From the IMG/VR virus record IMGVR_UViG_3300046787_000064, positions 1 to 38,455 of that record: a stretch of DNA of 38,455 bases; one strand, written 5' to 3'. Made by a program: the position numbers and the translations under genes. Below the pieces are notes generated by a model. It was not told where the DNA came from, searched no databases, and worked only from the letters and a program-made list of their open reading frames with translations. Positions within the stretch are counted from its first letter, which is position 1. Each line of letters begins with the position of its first letter. The DNA comes from a virus (Duplodnaviria > Caudoviricetes). Of the stretch, positions 2,403 to 33,894 are shown one piece after another.

Positions 2403-3032
2403 TTAGCCCTGTAAAACCGCCAGTGCTTCAAGTGTATGTTTGACGCGATCTGCCAAACCTATGTCACCACCATTGATTTTCTTGGTTAATTGAATCCAAG
2501 TCTTACGGCCTTCGCCATCTAATGGCAAACCACTCTCAGCCAACTCATTGCAATTATGAGTTTGCCAAAACCATCCAGCACTAAGAATTGCATATTTTGG
2601 AGTTGCAACAAGCTGCGGCTCCATCACGAAGTCCACGCCAAGGGCTTTGCCACAATGGAAGTAGTTGCTATATCCAGTTAATTGGATTGCACCTCTGCCA
2701 AAAAAACGGCCACCATCGCCTGATGCTTCATCTCTGTTTCCCATACGATTGGCGTAAACCTTGTTTGCCAATGCTTTACCGTTACGAGCGTAAGGCTGTG
2801 CTGACTCCAATGTAGGGAAACGTTTAGGCCAAATCTTCATCAAACGATCTGCTGAATAGCTCAACCCTTCCTCAAACTTGGTGAAGTGAGCACATTCATG
2901 GCCCGCCTGACCAATGAAGGCAGCTTGCTTTGTAGGAGTATTTATTGCAAACCGTTCAAATGTTTCATTCAATGGGTCAAGAAACTTTGCATCAATGTGC
3001 AGCTTGGCTAGTTGTTCTGGTGTCATTTTCAT
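2403..3032 (-). CDS. Endolysin, glycoside hydrolase family 19
   Basis: AAFIGQAGHE, FFGRGAIQLTGYSNY, SAGWFW and TKKINGG..GLADR motifs. Confidence 0.9.
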   Translation of the reverse strand: MKMTPEQLAKLHIDAKFLDPLNETFERFAINTPTKQAAFIGQAGHECAHFTKFEEGLSYSADRLMKIWPKRFPTLESAQPYARNGKALANKVYANRMGNRDEASGDGGRFFGRGAIQLTGYSNYFHCGKALGVDFVMEPQLVATPKYAILSAGWFWQTHNCNELAESGLPLDGEGRKTWIQLTKKINGGDIGLADRVKHTLEALAVLQG

Positions 3033-3528
3033 CCCCGTGATGTGTAAAAAATTTATTTTCAGCTTCTTTTCTAGCTAAAACTGCATCATCAAAATTTTCA
3101 TGGTATCCAAGAGAATGTCTTTCCCCATTGATTCTGATGTAAGAAATCCATTTATTTCTAGACTTGTACCAAAATACTCCTTTAGCACCAGACTTGTTGT
3201 CTATACGTAAATTCGTATTTTGTCGATTTTGACCTGATGTAACTTCTCGCAAGTTGCATATCCTGTTATCACTTTTATTTCTGTTGATGTGATCTATCTG
3301 TTTTGATGGAAATGAACCATTCATGTAAAGCCAAACAAGTCTATGTGAGTAATATTGATTATTGTCAATTGAAATAATCACATATCCTAATTTCTTGTTT
3401 ACAGTTCCTGCAATAGTTCCTTCCTTGGCGTTGTGACTTACTGTAATTTTTCTCACAAACAACCCAGTTTGCTCGTCATACGAAAACAGCTCCTTCAAAC
3501 GCTCCTGCGTTAAAATTTCTTCAGCCAT
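2992..3528 (-). CDS. HNH homing endonuclease with C-terminal AP2-like DNA-binding domain
   Basis: LTQERLKELFSYD, HRLVWLYM, IDHINRNKSDNRICNLR, NKSGAKGVFW...W...I...LG motifs; visibly AT-rich; AAGGAG SD upstream. Confidence 0.9.
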   Translation of the reverse strand: MAEEILTQERLKELFSYDEQTGLFVRKITVSHNAKEGTIAGTVNKKLGYVIISIDNNQYYSHRLVWLYMNGSFPSKQIDHINRNKSDNRICNLREVTSGQNRQNTNLRIDNKSGAKGVFWYKSRNKWISYIRINGERHSLGYHENFDDAVLARKEAENKFFTHHGDENDTRTTSQAAH

Positions 3529-18220: not shown

Positions 18221-19723
18221 TTATGCAACCCGCGCAAGGTTTCGTTTCAGTGGCTTTGACCATTGCTGCGCAGTATTCGCGCCGAACAGACCGATGGCTG
18301 CATCTGATGCAAACGTCAAAACAAACGAGTCAGCGCAGTCAGGTGACTTCAAGCCGCGCTTCCTGATGTCATCCTTGGACTCAATCTGAATCTTGCCGTT
18401 GGATGTGAAGAAGTACCTGACGGTGGCCAGTTCAGCCACCAAGCCTTCGTCAGCAGGGATACGGCAGTCACGCGCCTCGAACCAAGCCTTGGTCTTGTAC
18501 CAAAGCTCGGCGCGTAGATTTTTGTAGGTCGTACCCATTGCAGGGGACTCGCTCACGTTAATGCCACGAACAGGCAAACCCAACTCACGAAGACGGTCAA
18601 CCACGCCAGCGCCAAGACCAATCGAGTCCACCAAGATTTCGTGTGGACGCTGGCTGGATGGCAGGGCTTCCCACTCTGCGACCACTGCGCCCGTCAATTG
18701 CATCAAATCCAAGTTCTTCCAAGTCTTGATTGGCTCAATCAGTGCGTTACCCTGACGCTTGGCGAGTGCAGACCTATCACCACCAAAGCGAGCAACGTCC
18801 AAGCCCCATATCAGCTTCGCGTGGGGGGATGCGTCCACATCTCGGTGCTTGGCCAGTTCTAGCAGCTCCATCGGGATGATGGTGTCGTCGTCACTACGTG
18901 GAAATTCGCCAAGTACGCGAATCCGGTATGCGTTGGATTCCTCGCCATACCGAGACTTCATCTCCTCAACATAGGCTTCGGAGACTCGTGGCGAGTCCAC
19001 GCAAGACACCTTCATCGTCACCCAATCATTGGCCAGACGGTTGTGGGTGTCGTAGAAGAAGCCAGAGCTGCGGACTGGGTTGCCAAGCAGGATGGTCACA
19101 GCGTTGTGGCCGGACATTGAACCAGCAGCAGCCTCGAAGACCTGTTCAGGGATACCGGATGCCTCATCGCCAATCAGCATCACGTTCTCGCTGTGGACAC
19201 CTTGCAGGGCTTCGGGCTGCTCGGCGCGGGATGTTCTTGCGGACACGAAGGCTTCGGTTTGGGCTTCTTTGACCTCGATGCGGTCCTGCTTGACTTCAAG
19301 CATATCTCTAAGAGTCGGCGGTAACTCCTTGACCCAACGCTTTAATTCCGCGAAAAGAGCGTCATACAACTGGCTGGATGTGGGGGCTGTGACCACGACC
19401 TTGACGGGATAGCGCAAAAGCAGATACCAGATGATTGCCCACGAAGCGCCTGTTGACTTACCAACACCGTGGCCAGATCGCACTGAGATTCGGCGCTCGC
19501 CTTTGGCGATGTGGTTGAGGAGATCAATCTGCCATTGGTCGGGTTTCGTGTTCAGCACCTCTTGCACGAACAACACGGGGTTGTTGCGGTAGCGAGCAGT
19601 GAAGGCCACGAAAGGATTGTTGGCAATCTTTTCTTCTTGCTTCCTTGTAGCGTTGTCCACCAGCTCCTGCGTGTCTGGGTGCAGTTTCTTCTTTGGCTCT
19701 TTTGGTGTTGATTCTTTAGTCAT
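18221..19723 (-). CDS. terL: Terminase large subunit
   Basis: Walker A SGHGVGKST, Walker B LIGDEASG, GNP motif, nuclease GLDVARFGGDRS and SPDCAD. Confidence 0.95.
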   Translation of the reverse strand: MTKESTPKEPKKKLHPDTQELVDNATRKQEEKIANNPFVAFTARYRNNPVLFVQEVLNTKPDQWQIDLLNHIAKGERRISVRSGHGVGKSTGASWAIIWYLLLRYPVKVVVTAPTSSQLYDALFAELKRWVKELPPTLRDMLEVKQDRIEVKEAQTEAFVSARTSRAEQPEALQGVHSENVMLIGDEASGIPEQVFEAAAGSMSGHNAVTILLGNPVRSSGFFYDTHNRLANDWVTMKVSCVDSPRVSEAYVEEMKSRYGEESNAYRIRVLGEFPRSDDDTIIPMELLELAKHRDVDASPHAKLIWGLDVARFGGDRSALAKRQGNALIEPIKTWKNLDLMQLTGAVVAEWEALPSSQRPHEILVDSIGLGAGVVDRLRELGLPVRGINVSESPAMGTTYKNLRAELWYKTKAWFEARDCRIPADEGLVAELATVRYFFTSNGKIQIESKDDIRKRGLKSPDCADSFVLTFASDAAIGLFGANTAQQWSKPLKRNLARVA

Positions 19724-19896: not shown

Positions 19897-20027
19897 CTTG
19901 ATGTTGTAGTCAAGTGTAGCAGAGTTTTAGTTTTTAAATTTTTTGTGGCATCGCTTTAATAAGGGGGTGGTAGGGGGTACGTTATTAAATTTTTTTTTGA
20001 GGCGTGTGGGGTTGCGTCTGTAGCAGC

Positions 20028-20064
20028 CGCCCCGCCAGACCCCACCACGGGGGGCTTCGGGGCG
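20028..20064. repeat. GC-rich inverted repeat in terS-terL spacer
   Basis: CGCCCCG...CCCC-accac-GGGG...CGGGGCG. Confidence 0.55.
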
Positions 20065-20120
20065 TGTCAGGCTGGCACGATTCCTGCCTAAATCAGAACT
20101 GAATACTTTGGCACTCAGCC

Positions 20121-20148
20121 ACTTTATACAATGTCCATTATGTAAAGT
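20121..20148 (+). other. dif-like XerC/XerD recombination site
   Basis: ACTTTATACAA-TGTCCA-TTATGTAAAGT; 11-6-11 layout, right arm close to the XerD consensus TTATGTTAAAT, arms imperfectly inverted. Confidence 0.75.
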
Positions 20149-20158
20149 TATTTCAGTG

Positions 20159-20256
20159 TTACCCACAGCCTATACATGGATTGCGTAGCTTACGCGCAAC
20201 AAACATGATCGACTGTGGATAACTTGAACAACTTAGCTCAGTTTGTCTGTGGGTAA
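20159..20256. promoter_or_regulatory. Cluster of DnaA-box-like 9-mers
   Basis: TTACCCACA 20159-20167, TGTGGATAA 20214-20222 (perfect), TGTGGGTAA 20248-20256; also TTATTCACA 19851-19859. Confidence 0.6.
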
Positions 20257-20667
20257 CTCAGCCTCGATGAACTCACCATGTCGCAGCGCATCGAGCCGCA
20301 AGTTAGCCAGATTGACCGTAACGCTTGGCATCTTGTTCTGTGCGTACGCTGCTGGATTCCAGCGTTCAGCCACCCACTGGCGCGTTTGCACCCGTAAACG
20401 AGCCTTGTTGACCTCTGCAATGTCCGTCTCATCAGCGATCTCGATGGTCTGTGCCACGAGATGATCGGCAGCCCTCGCGCGTACGCGTGAGAGGAAACCC
20501 TCGTTCTCGGGCAGGTCTAGCCACGAAGTTAGTGCCCGCTTACTTACGCCAAGTTGAACGCAGATGCGGGTTTCGGACATACCAGCCTCGAACATATTGG
20601 CGAGCTGTTCCTTTGGCAACGTATCCAACATCGCCATGTCGTGATGCTTCTTTTTGTTACCAGCCAT
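20233..20667 (-). CDS. terS: Terminase small subunit (Sf6 gp1-like)
   Basis: N-terminal HTH, AR..AD...EIAD, ARLRVQTRQW.A.RW.P..Y; AGGAGG SD; upstream of terL. Confidence 0.8.
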   Translation of the reverse strand: MAGNKKKHHDMAMLDTLPKEQLANMFEAGMSETRICVQLGVSKRALTSWLDLPENEGFLSRVRARAADHLVAQTIEIADETDIAEVNKARLRVQTRQWVAERWNPAAYAQNKMPSVTVNLANLRLDALRHGEFIEAELPTDKLS

Positions 20668-26651: not shown

Positions 26652-26879
26652 TCACTTTCTGTTGTATTGATTCTGTTCTTCTTCACGCTCTTGGCTGAAC
26701 AAGTTGTAGATTGTTGATCGCACCTCATGCGGGATAGACCAACCCATCACATCAGGGTTGAGCATATCTTGCAGGATGTTGTTGCGAGCTGTGAGCTGCG
26801 CTTGCGTCTTCATCAGCTCTGAGCCAAGCCACACAATATGCTCGCGCATCACTTCTGTTTCTGTTTTGTTGTCGTTCAT
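26652..26879 (-). CDS. Hypothetical protein
   Basis: 75 aa; GAGGTG SD; ATGA-coupled. Confidence 0.7.
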   Translation of the reverse strand: MNDNKTETEVMREHIVWLGSELMKTQAQLTARNNILQDMLNPDVMGWSIPHEVRSTIYNLFSQEREEEQNQYNRK

Positions 26880-27127
26880 GCTTCACCTCTTGATATGCTT
26901 CGCGCTCGGATTGCTTCAGTAAGCATAAAACCGTTAGCCAATGTTGGCCCATGTGATTTGATTAACTCTATACACGCCTCACGCTCTTTATCTGCTACCA
27001 GTTTGGCAAAGTTCATCAAATGCTCGTTGTAAAAAACAAACGAGACTTCGCCAGACCTATGATTTTCAACGCCGTGTGATGCAACCTGTCTAGCCATCTC
27101 AATGATTTCGTCTTGCGTCATTACCAT
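26876..27127 (-). CDS. Tandem paralog family member 3 (MTQDEII...EREAC...RGEA)
   Basis: Shares sequence blocks with 27309-27590 and 27587-27811. Confidence 0.8.
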   Translation of the reverse strand: MVMTQDEIIEMARQVASHGVENHRSGEVSFVFYNEHLMNFAKLVADKEREACIELIKSHGPTLANGFMLTEAIRARSISRGEA

Positions 27128-27312
27128 TTCTCCTTCAGCTTTTGAAGTATTGACTTTTGCTCTTGTGAATCAATTGGAATAATTGTCATGGTCTGCTTAT
27201 AAGACTCATTCAAGTATTCCCTGATGGACTTCTGCGCGTACTCACGCATCTGCTCTGCTGAATACTTTGCGTCCAGTACGCTGCACTTGCGTGGGAGTCG
27301 TGGGAGTTTCAT
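27121..27312 (-). CDS. Hypothetical protein
   Basis: 63 aa; YSAEQMREYA motif; ATGA-coupled. Confidence 0.65.
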   Translation of the reverse strand: MKLPRLPRKCSVLDAKYSAEQMREYAQKSIREYLNESYKQTMTIIPIDSQEQKSILQKLKEKW

Positions 27313-27590
27313 GCTTCACCTCTTGCTTGGATTAGGTTGGACATTGCAACGGCTGCGCTTTTCCATGGGCCTTCCCATGTCACATCTGCGCACATCTGCG
27401 CACACGCCTCACGTTCAATCTTGATAGCTTGCCAGATGTTATCCATCTCCTGCTCTGCCCACGCATCTTTAGCCTCTGATATAGCCAATTTAATAAGATG
27501 CTCAAGGTCTTCATCCGTTGCCAACCAAGCCCCAAACCCATCTTTGGAAAGTTGAGCCTCACGCGCCAACCTGATAGTTTCTTTCATCAT
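27309..27590 (-). CDS. Tandem paralog family member 2
   Basis: IRLAREA...EREACAQ...IQARGEA. Confidence 0.8.
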   Translation of the reverse strand: MMKETIRLAREAQLSKDGFGAWLATDEDLEHLIKLAISEAKDAWAEQEMDNIWQAIKIEREACAQMCADVTWEGPWKSAAVAMSNLIQARGEA

Positions 27591-27811
27591 GCTTCACCTC
27601 TTGCTCGGATTGCTTCGGTTACGTCTGATTCATATTTACCAAAAGATTCAACCACCTTGGCACACGCCTCACGCTCTTTAGCTGCTACCAGTTTGGCAAA
27701 GGCAACAACGTATTCAGTTATTTCATGGTCTTCAACCCAAGGCGATGTTTCGTCATATTCACTCATAAGACGAGCCTGTCTAGCCATCTCAATGATTTCA
27801 TCTTGTGTCAT
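27587..27811 (-). CDS. Tandem paralog family member 1
   Basis: MTQDEIIEMARQ...FAKLVAAKEREACAK...EAIRARGEA. Confidence 0.8.
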   Translation of the reverse strand: MTQDEIIEMARQARLMSEYDETSPWVEDHEITEYVVAFAKLVAAKEREACAKVVESFGKYESDVTEAIRARGEA

Positions 27812-28275
27812 AACTTGTTTCCGTAGTAAGCCATCATGGTTGCGTCAGCACGACCTGAGTCCTTCACTCGCGCAAACAGTTGCTGATGCTCTGGGTGCAA
27901 CTCCATGCAGCGATGACGAATTGCATCCTTGCCCTTGCCGCATTGCGTTGCCTTCATCCATGCTTGTGGTGTGACGTATGTCACTGGCACATTGAGCGCA
28001 GCCAATGCACCTTCAATGATTCCAGCAGCACGACCAAAAGCGAACATCGAAGTCACGCCTTGGTTTGGCATCGCGCCGACCTTCTCCACCACTGCGTGAG
28101 TTGGATTCAATTCCTTGATGGCCGCAGCCACACCTTGTGCAGAGATGTGGTTCTTCTTCTTGCCACCACGAATGACCTCAACGCAAGGCATATCAATGAC
28201 GCGCTCGAACTTGCCATTGACGTACAAGGAGAAAGCGCCAGCAGCACCGATGTCAACGCCCATGACGCGAATCAT
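27808..28275 (-). CDS. RuvC-like Holliday junction resolvase
   Basis: VMGVDIG..GA, AVVEKV.AMP.QGV.S.F.FG, VTPQ.W, DSGRADA. Confidence 0.8.
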   Translation of the reverse strand: MIRVMGVDIGAAGAFSLYVNGKFERVIDMPCVEVIRGGKKKNHISAQGVAAAIKELNPTHAVVEKVGAMPNQGVTSMFAFGRAAGIIEGALAALNVPVTYVTPQAWMKATQCGKGKDAIRHRCMELHPEHQQLFARVKDSGRADATMMAYYGNKL

Positions 28276-28493
28276 GCTGAGTCCTTGGTGAGCTGTGCAA
28301 TACGCTGTGCAATTAGCTCGTCGAGTGCCGCCTTGAGCTTGTCCACGGATGACACCAATGGAACTGTCTTGCCCGAAATCCACCGAGAAACCTGTGCTTG
28401 GTCAATCTCGGCTTTACGGCTGACCTCTGCCATGTTGAAGCCAGCAGCCTCGGCTCGCTGTCGGATGTCTGTGATGTATGTTGAAGTGTTCAT
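28272..28493 (-). CDS. Cro/XRE-like helix-turn-helix regulator
   Basis: MAEVSRKAEIDQAQVSRWISGKTVP HTH; first gene of leftward operon. Confidence 0.8.
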   Translation of the reverse strand: MNTSTYITDIRQRAEAAGFNMAEVSRKAEIDQAQVSRWISGKTVPLVSSVDKLKAALDELIAQRIAQLTKDSA

Positions 28494-28535
28494 GCGTAGT
28501 ATGTTAACATGAACTTGACTATGTAATCACATGAG

Positions 28536-28632
28536 TAAAAAGATGGGTGACAGCGCGAACTGCCACCCATTCAAAGGCAACTGCGCAGGGGAGAACTGCA
28601 CAGCATAGGTGGGAGAAACCGACCCACCGTGT
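28536..28632 (-). ncRNA. Candidate three-hairpin small RNA ending in a terminator
   Basis: GGTGGG/CCCACC, GCTGTGCAG/CTGCGCAGT, ATGGGTGGCAG/CTGTCACCCAT + CTTTTT; TAAAAT about 6 nt upstream. Confidence 0.5.
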
Positions 28633-28681
28633 AGGATTTTAGGGATTTGTGGTTAAAAAAACACATCCAATAAAATAATCC

Positions 28682-28709
28682 TTGTCTACCTAATCAAGTG
28701 CGATATGAT
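28682..28709 (+). promoter_or_regulatory. Putative sigma70 promoter for rightward early genes
   Basis: TTGTCT-16 bp-TATGAT, upstream AT-rich tract, TAAGGA SD before ATG 28742. Confidence 0.55.
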
Positions 28710-28741
28710 TCACTCATCAACAACCACTAAGGATTGAAACC

Positions 28742-28942
28742 ATGAAACTCAACGACACCACCCGCACCTACCCACGCACCATGCAGGAAGCCTATCCCAA
28801 CACCATTGACGCAATCGAGTCGCGTCAGCGTTGGGAGTGGATGGAAGGCCATCGCTCTGATGCGTCAGCTCAAGCTGAGTATTGGGTTCACATGGCGCTG
28901 GCCTTTGCTGCTGGTTTCTTGGTTTGCCATTTGTTTGCGTAA
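28742..28942 (+). CDS. Small early protein with C-terminal TM
   Basis: TTRTYPRTMQEAYP motif; hydrophobic end; good SD. Confidence 0.75.
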   Translation: MKLNDTTRTYPRTMQEAYPNTIDAIESRQRWEWMEGHRSDASAQAEYWVHMALAFAAGFLVCHLFA

Positions 28943-31999: not shown

Positions 32000-32373
32000 A
32001 GTCAGTACAGCGTCCAAGGCTCATCAAAGCAATCATGGACAAACCTTTGACGGCGATGGAAGTGTCAAAGGTTATTCATTGCCACGTGCGTCATGCAAGA
32101 GCAATCTTGCGTGAGCTTTACAAGAATGGCAACGTGTTCATTCAAGAGTGGCATCCTGCTGAGTATCAAAGCATCCCGACTGCTGCGTACCGCTATGGCA
32201 TTGGCTCTGATGCCGTTAAGCCAAAGCCAATGACGAGTACGCAGCGCGTCCAGAAGATGCGCGAAAAGGAAGACGTGGAGAAGAAGGCGTTTCGTTTAGC
32301 ACGTGAACGCCAGCTTCACAGAAAGATCAAACGCGACCCGTTGACGGCTGCGTTCTTTGGGTCAGCGTCCTAG
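31996..32373 (+). CDS. Winged-helix DNA-binding protein
   Basis: LTAMEVS..IHC..RH.R..L..L...G.VFI.EW; C-terminal RDPLTAAFFG. Confidence 0.65.
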   Translation: MKSVQRPRLIKAIMDKPLTAMEVSKVIHCHVRHARAILRELYKNGNVFIQEWHPAEYQSIPTAAYRYGIGSDAVKPKPMTSTQRVQKMREKEDVEKKAFRLARERQLHRKIKRDPLTAAFFGSAS

Positions 32374-33894
32374 TAAGCCGTACTTTGCCAGCTCATCATC
32401 AATCTGTTGTTGAGTGATGACAGGCTGCTCTTGAGACAACAAGTCAGGAGCAGCAACTCCCATTGCAGAGGCAATGGCAGCGGTGCGCCTCCAAGGGTCA
32501 AATGCTGCAAAGCGTGAGCGCAACAAGTCAGGGTCTTGCACTGCTGTAACTGTACTTTTTTGAGATTTATAGAGCTTGTCCATATAGTCACGAGCTTCGC
32601 CAAACTGACTGCCAGTTACGTTAGACCATGTTTCATCAGGAGTGATTCCATACTTGTCCTGCAAATATTCTTTCGCCCTGAAGATGTGACTATTTGGCCC
32701 TAAATCTTTGACGTTCTTTATGTTTACGCCCTTCAAGCCTAACAGGTCATTTGCAATCGTTCCAAGTTCGTCAGTAGATGTTACGTCATTCCTTGAAAGC
32801 TCCATCTCGTCAAGAGAATATCGCTTTTTACCTGCTTTTGGCGCAAGTGTGTTTGTCTCAATATCCGCCCAATTACGGCCTTTTGCATTTACGTCAAGTA
32901 ACCCTTCTTTGCTCATCCGCATTGGGATAATGTTTCCACCACCAGAAGCATTTACATAAGTCTCAGCAGCTAATGGGTTGTCATTTACAAATGCACCAGC
33001 ACCAGAAGTTTTACCTTTACCAGCAGTGTTCATTGCTTGTATATCTGCATTTGTTCCGTGATAAACATCAAACGGAAACATCGCATCAGCTCGTTGCTGT
33101 GCCGTATTGTTTGGTGGTAGACCAAGTCCGAATTGTTCTTTAGGCAATGCAGCGCGTTGCTGTGCAAGTCTGATTGCTTCTTCTTGTGGGAATGTAAAGG
33201 ATGGCTTTTCAACAGTGACAGGGATAGAGCCTTTTGGCTTTCCCGTATCAATTCTGAAGTCCATACGACCACTAGGAAACTCATCATCAAGATTAAGCAA
33301 TGAAGGCTTTACGCGAACTGGAACAGCAACATCACCATAACCTGTGTCTGTTGCTTTTTGTGTTGTCAAATAAACGCTTGGCTCACCAGCAGATTTGAGC
33401 CGCCCAGTTTTTGAAATCTGTTCAGCAGCAGACTTGTTTGTGTGATGGAAAAGCGTAACAGTACCATCAGTATTTAATGGTAAGCCTGTTAATTCATCAA
33501 TCTTTGGAGTCAAAAGACCAACAACGTCATCAACTGGCTTGATGCTCAATCCAACAGGCATATTCTTAACAGCTTTTGAAAGCTCTATTGGCCCACGAGG
33601 ATTCATCGCAGCACCCAACTGCTCCATGCCTGATGACTCCATGCGTGGTGCAGAAGCGCGTGGAATCTTGGACAGGATTTGTTCAGTTGTTGGTGCTGCT
33701 GGCGCTGCTTGCAGCAAGCCTTGCACCGGCTGTGGCAAGCGTGGCGTGATGTACTCACGAGCCAACGCGTTTACATCACCAAATAAACCAACTGGTGCAA
33801 CAGCAAAACCACGACCTAAAGACTCTGCGTTGCTCAATGAGCCACGGAAAGCATCCATTAAAAGAGAGTTTGAGTATGGGTTTTGTGTTGCCAT
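32362..33894 (-). CDS. Putative ejected polyvalent protein with two ADP-ribosyltransferase-like domains
   Basis: TLFHHT...I.KTG.L...VYLTT; DVYHGT...GAG.F...P..A.TY...RSRFAAFDP; last gene of ejection operon. Confidence 0.65.
   Translation of the reverse strand: MATQNPYSNSLLMDAFRGSLSNAESLGRGFAVAPVGLFGDVNALAREYITPRLPQPVQGLLQAAPAAPTTEQILSKIPRASAPRMESSGMEQLGAAMNPRGPIELSKAVKNMPVGLSIKPVDDVVGLLTPKIDELTGLPLNTDGTVTLFHHTNKSAAEQISKTGRLKSAGEPSVYLTTQKATDTGYGDVAVPVRVKPSLLNLDDEFPSGRMDFRIDTGKPKGSIPVTVEKPSFTFPQEEAIRLAQQRAALPKEQFGLGLPPNNTAQQRADAMFPFDVYHGTNADIQAMNTAGKGKTSGAGAFVNDNPLAAETYVNASGGGNIIPMRMSKEGLLDVNAKGRNWADIETNTLAPKAGKKRYSLDEMELSRNDVTSTDELGTIANDLLGLKGVNIKNVKDLGPNSHIFRAKEYLQDKYGITPDETWSNVTGSQFGEARDYMDKLYKSQKSTVTAVQDPDLLRSRFAAFDPWRRTAAIASAMGVAAPDLLSQEQPVITQQQIDDELAKYGLLGR

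Follow-up and report, generated by a model that had tools for sequence, protein, structure and literature searches.

A Comamonadaceae-type dif-like site beside the terminase genes of an integrase-less tailed phage, probably recombined by host XerCD on phage DNA

Between the two terminase genes of an integrase-less tailed phage lies a 28-bp site built like the chromosomal dif of Comamonadaceae, at which XerC and XerD, the recombinases of the host, probably recombine the phage's own copies of the site into unit-length circles, as opposed to integrating the phage into the chromosome. An array of DnaA-box-like motifs accompanies the site on its XerD side, and a small serine resolvase gene replaces it in sister lineages. 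In this way, an abundant group of freshwater tailed phages (thousands of TerL clusters) appears to turn the host Xer machinery on its own genome.

The window, i.e., the whole stretch of 38,455 nucleotides that was analysed, corresponds to a circularly complete tailed phage genome of 38.3 kb (132-nt end overlap, CheckV 100%), and the phage occurs in sequencing runs of freshwater and estuary metagenomes. A profile scan of the ORFs recognised genes for portal, capsid, scaffold, tail and ejection proteins. Because no sheath or tape measure match was obtained beside them among the ORFs scanned, the phage appears to be podovirus-like. The preliminary description had recognised no integrase in this genome, and this was upheld: a six-frame search of the window, in which positive controls were detected, gave no tyrosine integrase, serine resolvase or large serine recombinase, and PHROGs and Pfam scans (58 and 62 window ORFs) gave no integrase or recombinase. 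In these scans, a primase-helicase was present, DNA polymerase was absent and no CI-type repressor was recognised. A Cro-like HTH gene (28272–28942) and a Holliday junction resolvase gene (27808–28383) are located at a divergent promoter region. Besides, several small ORFs at 26876–27814 start and end with near-identical repeats of 25–40 bp, which suggests a shuffling cassette array, an HNH endonuclease gene (2992–3528) adjoins the endolysin gene, and a putative ejected protein (32362–33894) contains an ART-PolyVal ADP-ribosyltransferase domain. The 225-aa ORF upstream of terS had no match in the protein atlas, and intein domains occur in some close TerL relatives (proteins P0003, P0006 and P0009), which measure about 820 aa. 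The features surrounding the site are collected in Table 1.

Table 1. Positions in the window of the dif-like site, its neighbouring motifs and the terminase genes.
Feature	Position	Strand	Remark
Terminase large subunit gene (terL)	18221–19723	−	56.5% identical to TerL of Sinorhizobium phage phiM5
A/T tracts and C-run/G-run stem	19925–20055		Common to resolvase lineages; candidate packaging-end signal
TGAATAC motif	20100–20106	+	21 bp before the XerC arm; recurs in relatives (by eye, uncounted)
XerC-type arm	20121–20131	+	10 of 11 bases as in the commonest Comamonadaceae dif left arm; A, not G, at position 10
6-bp centre	20132–20137	+	First three bases as in the host centre; positions 4 and 5 differ
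XerD-type arm	20138–20148	+	Same as in 18 of 120 listed genome matches; one base off 101 of 120
DnaA-box-like 9-mer 1	20159–20167	+	One mismatch; 10 bp after the XerD arm
DnaA-box-like 9-mer 2	20214–20222	−	Perfect TTATCCACA; 65 bp after the XerD arm
DnaA-box-like 9-mer 3	20248–20256	−	One mismatch; 99 bp after the XerD arm, within the last terS codons
Terminase small subunit gene (terS)	20233–20667	−	phrog_1482; Sf6-like TerS, PF20901

The 28-bp site of 11-6-11 layout that had been proposed for the spacer between terS and terL was confirmed exactly, at 20121–20148 on the plus strand, 84 bp past the terS stop and 397 bp ahead of the first terL start. The spacer is most likely non-coding, as first supposed, since the 79-aa ORF overlapping the site (19927–20166) is without any family assignment and the distance from site to terL varies from 160 to 947 bp among relatives. 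The scoring with a dif matrix that had been suggested was then carried out with a matrix built from 30 host sites of the Limnohabitans genus. The site reached 31.0 bits (30.0 for the arms only), the best other place in the window 3.3 bits (arms) and the top of 200 shuffles 15.3 bits, while host sites range from 33 to 39 bits. The dif match is far beyond chance. Over its whole length, the site shares 24 of 28 bases with the commonest host dif and 23 of 28 with the dif of Rhodoferax ferrireducens, as the latter appears in Table 1 within the accessible part of PMC2731167. Its palindromy is ordinary: 9 of the 11 arm positions pair and nine places in the window reach at least 9, so that palindrome strength was rejected as evidence for the site. 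In BLAST searches of phage and plasmid collections, the site had chance-level matches only, and a promoter and terminator scan likewise remained at chance level. The window contains a single GGGNAGGG KOPS octamer, a motif that was taken from the accessible text of PMC5357621 and may not be the host's, and no KOPS polarity converging on the site was found in the window.

When GTDB genomes were searched with the arm pattern and a free centre, at least 120 loci were obtained. The 80 titles listed comprise 53 Comamonadaceae, 25 broader beta-proteobacterial labels and 2 other phyla. Among the 120 loci listed, 102 have the canonical host centre and 9 a one-base variant of it (111 together), and the left arm ends with TACGA in 114. 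The XerC arm of the phage, which had been regarded as non-canonical, is thus a single base off the usual arm of this family. Within the genus of Limnohabitans sp. Rim11, 81 of 127 genomes contain the site, 80 of them once, and in each of three closed host genomes the single dif is 50–55% of the chromosome away from dnaA. Judged by its sequence, the phage site is a host-type XerC/XerD site of Burkholderiales; the earlier attribution of the XerD arm to this order holds and can be narrowed to Comamonadaceae. Because the phage has the arm of this family with one change, and the dif matches come from Comamonadaceae, the host of the window phage is likely a member of this family. The arm type could therefore be used as a host-prediction tag, which would place the uncultured phages of the group in Comamonadaceae.

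Some bacterial loci resembled the phage site without belonging to it. L300, L502 and L504, considered as phage/host hybrids, were rejected as host variants with bacterial flanks, and a second site of genome G455, which has the window's centre, does not stem from the window phage and sits in a primase (DUF927) island. In Comamonadaceae chromosomal islands (L224, L232, L242, L287 and L498, the last being G455:C2), a small HTH gene adjoins a second dif-like site, whose centre is not the host's. A tyrosine integrase is encoded by L224 and L232 themselves and a PriCT-2 primase by L232 and L498; these islands resemble phage satellites equipped with a resolution site. On the XerC side, box-like motifs were seen in five of the eight non-host-centre genome matches listed.

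Conservation of the arms in related phage spacers, which the preliminary description had proposed to examine, was assessed on 80 relatives chosen by TerL alone (83–94% aa identity). Both arms were kept: the site was present, at 19 or more of 22 arm bases, in 68 of the 80, that is, in 68 of the 70 with enough DNA. The 12 misses consist of ten loci with less than 100 bp of upstream DNA, one contig ending inside the site, and L022, which is truly without it. TerL of L022 is 87% identical to that of the window, a different gene lies directly upstream and the site is absent in 2.5 kb, which is likely the result of mosaicism of the packaging module. In the 68 relatives the orientation is always that of the window, and the XerD arm occurs in two forms, the XerC arm in ten and the centre in six. 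A wider arm-pattern scan of IMG/VR, in which the arms are fixed by the search pattern and which partly overlaps the 68 relatives, listed 120 loci of an estimated 390. Where TerL was matched, it was 29 to 95% identical, and the site occurred in both orientations relative to terS.

The centre behaves differently from that of the host. Among the 120 viral loci listed, 21 centre hexamers were counted, and neither the host centre nor its last three bases occurred in these loci or in the 68 relatives (0/120 and 0/68). The first three host bases are kept in 55 of the 68 close relatives and in the window, and in 15 of the 120 wider loci listed. Position 10 of the XerC arm is the host G in none of the 68 relatives and in 19 of the 120 pattern loci listed. 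Centre length is constant at 6, position 5 is C in 67 of 68 relatives and 113 of 120 listed loci, and each of 25 site-bearing whole records contains one dif-like site. Host-type arms together with a free centre that avoids the host's would fit a crossover between identical phage copies. Drift of the centre would also be expected if binding alone counted, with XerCD and DnaA sitting at the packaging end as a roadblock, an end cap, an FtsK stop or a decoy that disturbs replication or segregation of the host chromosome; the location in the packaging region, the absence of an FtsK-gamma-like activator in 25 records and the lone KOPS octamer of the window are compatible with such a role. However, the constant centre length and the C at position 5 suggest catalytic constraints, and it is a catalytic resolvase that replaces the site in sister lineages, so that binding without crossover is distinctly unlikely.

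Further from the window, PHROGs placed terS or terL beside the site in 11 of 14 loci of distant lineages. The three others (L083, L127 and L151) are viral loci that have the core without boxes and without a terminase neighbour, and in L127 and L151 the core is beside an HTH_36 replication-type gene. In L091, L100, L106, L107, L086 and L109, terS and the site are followed, in the place of terL, by an ORF of more than 410 aa without PHROG or Pfam family, that of L091 giving a faint ART-PolyVal match. In members of the same TerL family (L351–L354, L358, L360–L362 and L388), the dif-like site close to terS or terL is of another bacterial type and is a possible host tag. Neither site nor resolvase was found in phiM5, MW202496, MW202711 and most TerL relatives at 42–52% identity.

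The XerD side of the core holds an array of boxes, a box being counted as a 9-mer within one mismatch of TTATCCACA and at most 150 bp from the arm. Boxes occur on this side in 68 of 68 relatives, with a mean of 3.6 per 150 bp vs. a background of 0.03, and on the XerC side in none of them (0/68). Among listed loci, they were found at 106 of 111 phage pattern loci vs. 2 of 103 host dif sites. Of 125 distinct phage rows, 104 have a forward box at exactly +10 from the XerD arm. A reverse box follows at +65 to +67: where the XerD arm is towards terS, as in the window, it is present in 47 of 49 rows, and where the XerC arm is towards terS, in 15 of 22, the other 7 having one reverse box at +20. Since the same offsets recur in both orientations to terS, the array goes with the core and not with the terminase genes. 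Column agreement is 0.86 for the first box vs. 0.49 for the DNA between boxes. The same 9-mer, whose consensus we take to be a DnaA box, occurs as a pair, with a spacing of about 50 bp, in the dnaA region of three of three host genomes, and from this resemblance DnaA would be expected to bind the phage boxes. Two boxes at other offsets are present in L338, none in the nine loci with dif-like sites of other host types listed above (0/9), and in resolvase lineages a box occurs in only 1 of 22 equivalent stretches.

Two other explanations of this module were considered. The boxes could load DnaA for phage replication, the dif-like core only unlinking daughter circles, in which case core and boxes would be neighbours and not partners. 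This would suit a motif that by its context is the host's DnaA box, a phage with a primase-helicase and no DNA polymerase, and the A/T tracts nearby. Nevertheless, the first box keeps its exact 10-bp distance from the XerD arm while the inter-box DNA diverges, the A/T tracts change sides when the module inverts, and the boxes are nearly missing from the resolvase lineages, which makes an origin of this kind unlikely. Alternatively, the palindrome and the repeats might bind a phage protein, e.g., TerS, the dif likeness having arisen by convergence. Lambda cosB contains R sites, which one forward and two reverse repeats recall, and terS or terL is the neighbour in most distant lineages. Yet the arms copy the family-specific asymmetry of the host (31 bits), other family members have dif sites of other bacterial types, and a single motif persists in the module through inversion relative to terS and across TerS proteins that diverge to about 30%; a phage-protein site is highly improbable.

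In the closest GenBank relative, MW202879.1 (TerL 69% identical), a small serine recombinase of the PF00239 family (222 aa) comes right after terS and the site is missing, and its relatives likewise lack the site and have a small serine recombinase about 210 bp after terS. No resolvase match was obtained in the 201 loci L001–L201. Whole records were also compared, the site-bearing and resolvase sets having been chosen for those features and being related by descent: the 25 site-bearing records contain neither resolvase nor tyrosine integrase, the 10 resolvase-bearing ones contain no site, with a separate integrase in two, and 15 others have no resolvase and, in five cases, an integrase. Applied to whole records, the site pattern failed to detect the known sites of L362 and L388, which are of other dif types. 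Across 213 loci, 84 were labelled as having a Comamonadaceae-type site, 55 a resolvase, 9 another dif type and 2 neither, and 63 were unlabelled, having too little DNA or no TerS match. Site and resolvase occur together in none of the 150 labelled loci.

For the TerL tree, the 213 loci were reduced to 31 rows at 93% identity, 60 of the 63 unlabelled loci being left out. The resolvase label requires four changes on this tree, three of them forced by starred branches; L338, which has the site, is nested among resolvase rows, and L453, which has the resolvase, is sister to the clade of the window. On this tree, site and small serine resolvase were interchanged at least three times, and in the labelled loci they are mutually exclusive within the terS–terL interval, which is also a cargo hot spot. 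Because a shared G/C stem separates the resolvase gene, towards terL, from the dif-like site, towards terS, the interval is the same and the position is not. From terS to the resolvase gene, L326:1620–1860 and its relatives (alignment A1) contain a palindrome, the G/C stem and an A/T tract, as well as an inverted repeat that overlaps a sigma-70-like promoter, and this stretch may hold res and an early promoter. The palindrome after terS was rejected as res, and no res site is claimed, because it is also found beside dif sites.

Use of host XerCD, as put forward in the preliminary description, comprised both resolution of the phage's own DNA, which fits the evidence, and integration at host dif, which is not supported: no prophage or junction was found in the samples, though filamentous phages at the same dif were. 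When all IMG/VR was scanned with the host centre, one contig was returned, compared with an estimated 390 stretches for the free-centre pattern; it is that of a filamentous phage of the rolling-circle type and ends at dif. In metagenomes, the right-junction scan (phage-type left arm with host centre) gave three matches, consisting of two host variants and one filamentous element. The left-junction scan gave none; this zero is uninformative, because two known loci that fit the pattern were also missed. No close TerL was present in the 401 family genomes sampled (best 28–44%), the arm-plus-box motif occurred in 0 of 401 order genomes sampled, and window proteins were absent beside the 111 host-type sites listed and 30 genus-level sites. 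Besides, 119 of the best 120 TerL clusters are on contigs of at most 40 kb. L459 and L503, found integrated at Comamonadaceae dif, are elements of the filamentous or rolling-circle type, in which the site falls within the 3' end of a repressor-like ORF.

An integration of the VGJphi type, in which XerC alone would exchange one strand pair with host dif and replication would complete the reaction, leaving a tailed prophage at the terminus, has several points in its favour: the phage has no integrase and a single site, filamentous phages use the same dif (L459 and L503), and 55 of 68 relatives and the window keep the first three host centre bases and differ on the XerD side, which is the VGJphi layout as given in the accessible text of PMC5357621. 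However, the wider loci listed keep these three bases in only 15 of 120 cases, the genomes and metagenomes sampled showed no junction, prophage, close TerL or arm-plus-box motif (one of the metagenome scans having missed known positives), 119 of the best 120 TerL clusters are on contigs of ≤40 kb and no CI-type repressor was recognised. We regard this route as very unlikely.

Recombination between phage copies, the reading that we favour, would proceed as follows. Host XerC and XerD would bind and cut the dif-like site, and two directly repeated phage copies would recombine to give unit-length circles. Both partners being phage copies, homology of the centre would be automatic and the centre therefore free to drift, and the centre mismatch to the host would block XerD exchange with the chromosome. 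The two copies may be supplied by the terminal redundancy of the injected genome, by multimers of replicating circles, or by both, these sources being about level. In phage P1, loxP is near pac and circularises the terminally redundant genome. Joining ends into concatemers would be the same reaction reversed.

A few observations bear on the genome ends. Sf6-like TerS proteins are of the headful packaging type. In phiM5, which is the nearest cultured relative by TerL (Table 1), an annotated terminal repeat of 357 bp ends 36 bp before terL, and a G/C-rich element like that at 20027–20055 of the window lies just inside it. At the corresponding place phiM5 has no dif-like core, and it encodes an integrase. 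By analogy, a terminal repeat may enclose the site of the window, or the site may closely follow a pac site in the Sf6-like terS; with either arrangement it would occur twice in virion DNA. Two further signals were discarded: a depth rise near the site in contigs of four runs reflects many related phages and neither ends nor copy number, and contig breaks 45–90 bp before terL were set aside as physical ends, as they fall in G-runs.

An FtsK-gamma domain was found in 0 of the 25 site-bearing records; given this and the one KOPS octamer, the boxes are the candidate activator. A protein bound there, most likely host DnaA, would take the place of FtsK as accessory factor and set direction. If phage copies do recombine with each other, we assign this role to DnaA tentatively, with a little less than even confidence. 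Bregu et al. are said to have found in 2002 that psi accessory DNA moved to the XerD side makes XerD exchange first. In its most specific form, our proposal is that DnaA on the XerD-side array assembles the synapse and starts XerD-first recombination without FtsK, as a host-built substitute for Cre/loxP that would be tied to the replication state of the host and interchangeable in evolution with a phage resolvase. This full version is rather unlikely. If true, the phage genome would be circularised or monomerised only with active host DnaA, which would be the first case of DnaA-licensed site-specific recombination.

According to the accessible portion of a preprint (bioRxiv 10.64898/2026.02.23.706985), the accessory complexes of cer and psi turn on XerCD without FtsK and for resolution only, and such topological filters require supercoiled circles. 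This need for supercoiling would fit resolution of multimers and not the joining of relaxed linear ends. The same portion of the preprint describes a convergent filter in Tn3-type resolvases, which would fit the resolvase swap. At cer, the exchange of one strand pair is finished by Holliday junction resolution (PMC5357621, accessible text), and the Holliday junction resolvase of the phage could complete such an exchange in the same manner. A ParA-type partition ATPase (PF13614) was found in 0 of the 25 site-bearing records, and plasmid life is therefore less plausible.

The open PMC and bioRxiv text yielded no report of a dif-like site beside tailed-phage terminase genes, and none in which DnaA boxes serve Xer as accessory DNA or dif and a resolvase are swapped. 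In the accessible parts of PMC5357621, PMC9226527, PMC7062461, PMC12715192 and PMC11630473, phage exploitation of Xer is described for filamentous, microviral and tailless phages, as integration. These elements (VGJphi, CTXphi, TLCphi, enterogokushoviruses and dif-type tailless phages) resemble the present group in being integrase-less phages with a dif-like site, and differ in being filamentous, microviral or tailless and found integrated, whereas the window is a 38-kb tailed phage of which no integrated copy was found. Elements of the CTXphi or TLCphi type have two inverted sites on ssDNA, or a degenerate XerD arm together with an activator of their own; the present group has one site per genome, a host-like XerD arm and no FtsK-gamma domain (25 records). 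With the dif of Comamonadaceae, the site shares the 11-6-11 layout and arms matching those of the host, but its centre is never the host's, position 10 of the XerC arm is usually not G, boxes are nearly absent at host dif (2 of 103 listed) and KOPS polarity is missing from the phage.

The closest likeness is with cer of ColE1 and psi of pSC101, which, as far as the accessible text of PMC5357621 and bioRxiv 10.64898/2026.02.23.706985 describes them, also combine a dif-like core on a mobile element, host XerCD and a centre unlike that of chromosomal dif. In both cases conserved accessory DNA with host-factor boxes is adjacent, in the phage as a phased box array. By contrast, the phage site is beside terS on a tailed phage and its activity is a prediction, and its boxes are DnaA-like, whereas cer and psi use PepA with ArgR or ArcA. 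The array of about 110 bp is on the XerD side, while the accessory DNA of cer and psi is on the XerC side. With P1 loxP/Cre, the phage would share a site-specific crossover on its own DNA. Recombinases of the Xer-like or small serine kind, thought to resolve dimers, are found in plasmid prophages (PMC8026635, accessible text). Unlike P1 and the plasmid prophages, the present group has neither an encoded recombinase nor ParA, and the enzyme would be the host's. DnaA is a candidate for a new Xer accessory factor, and the natural swap with a serine resolvase points to the function of the site. Circularisation and persistence of integrase-less phages in slow-growing hosts, as well as activation of Xer by DnaA, become testable. 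On present evidence, we conclude that the site probably works like cer and psi or like loxP, and that the phage is not a member of the Xer-integrated elements.
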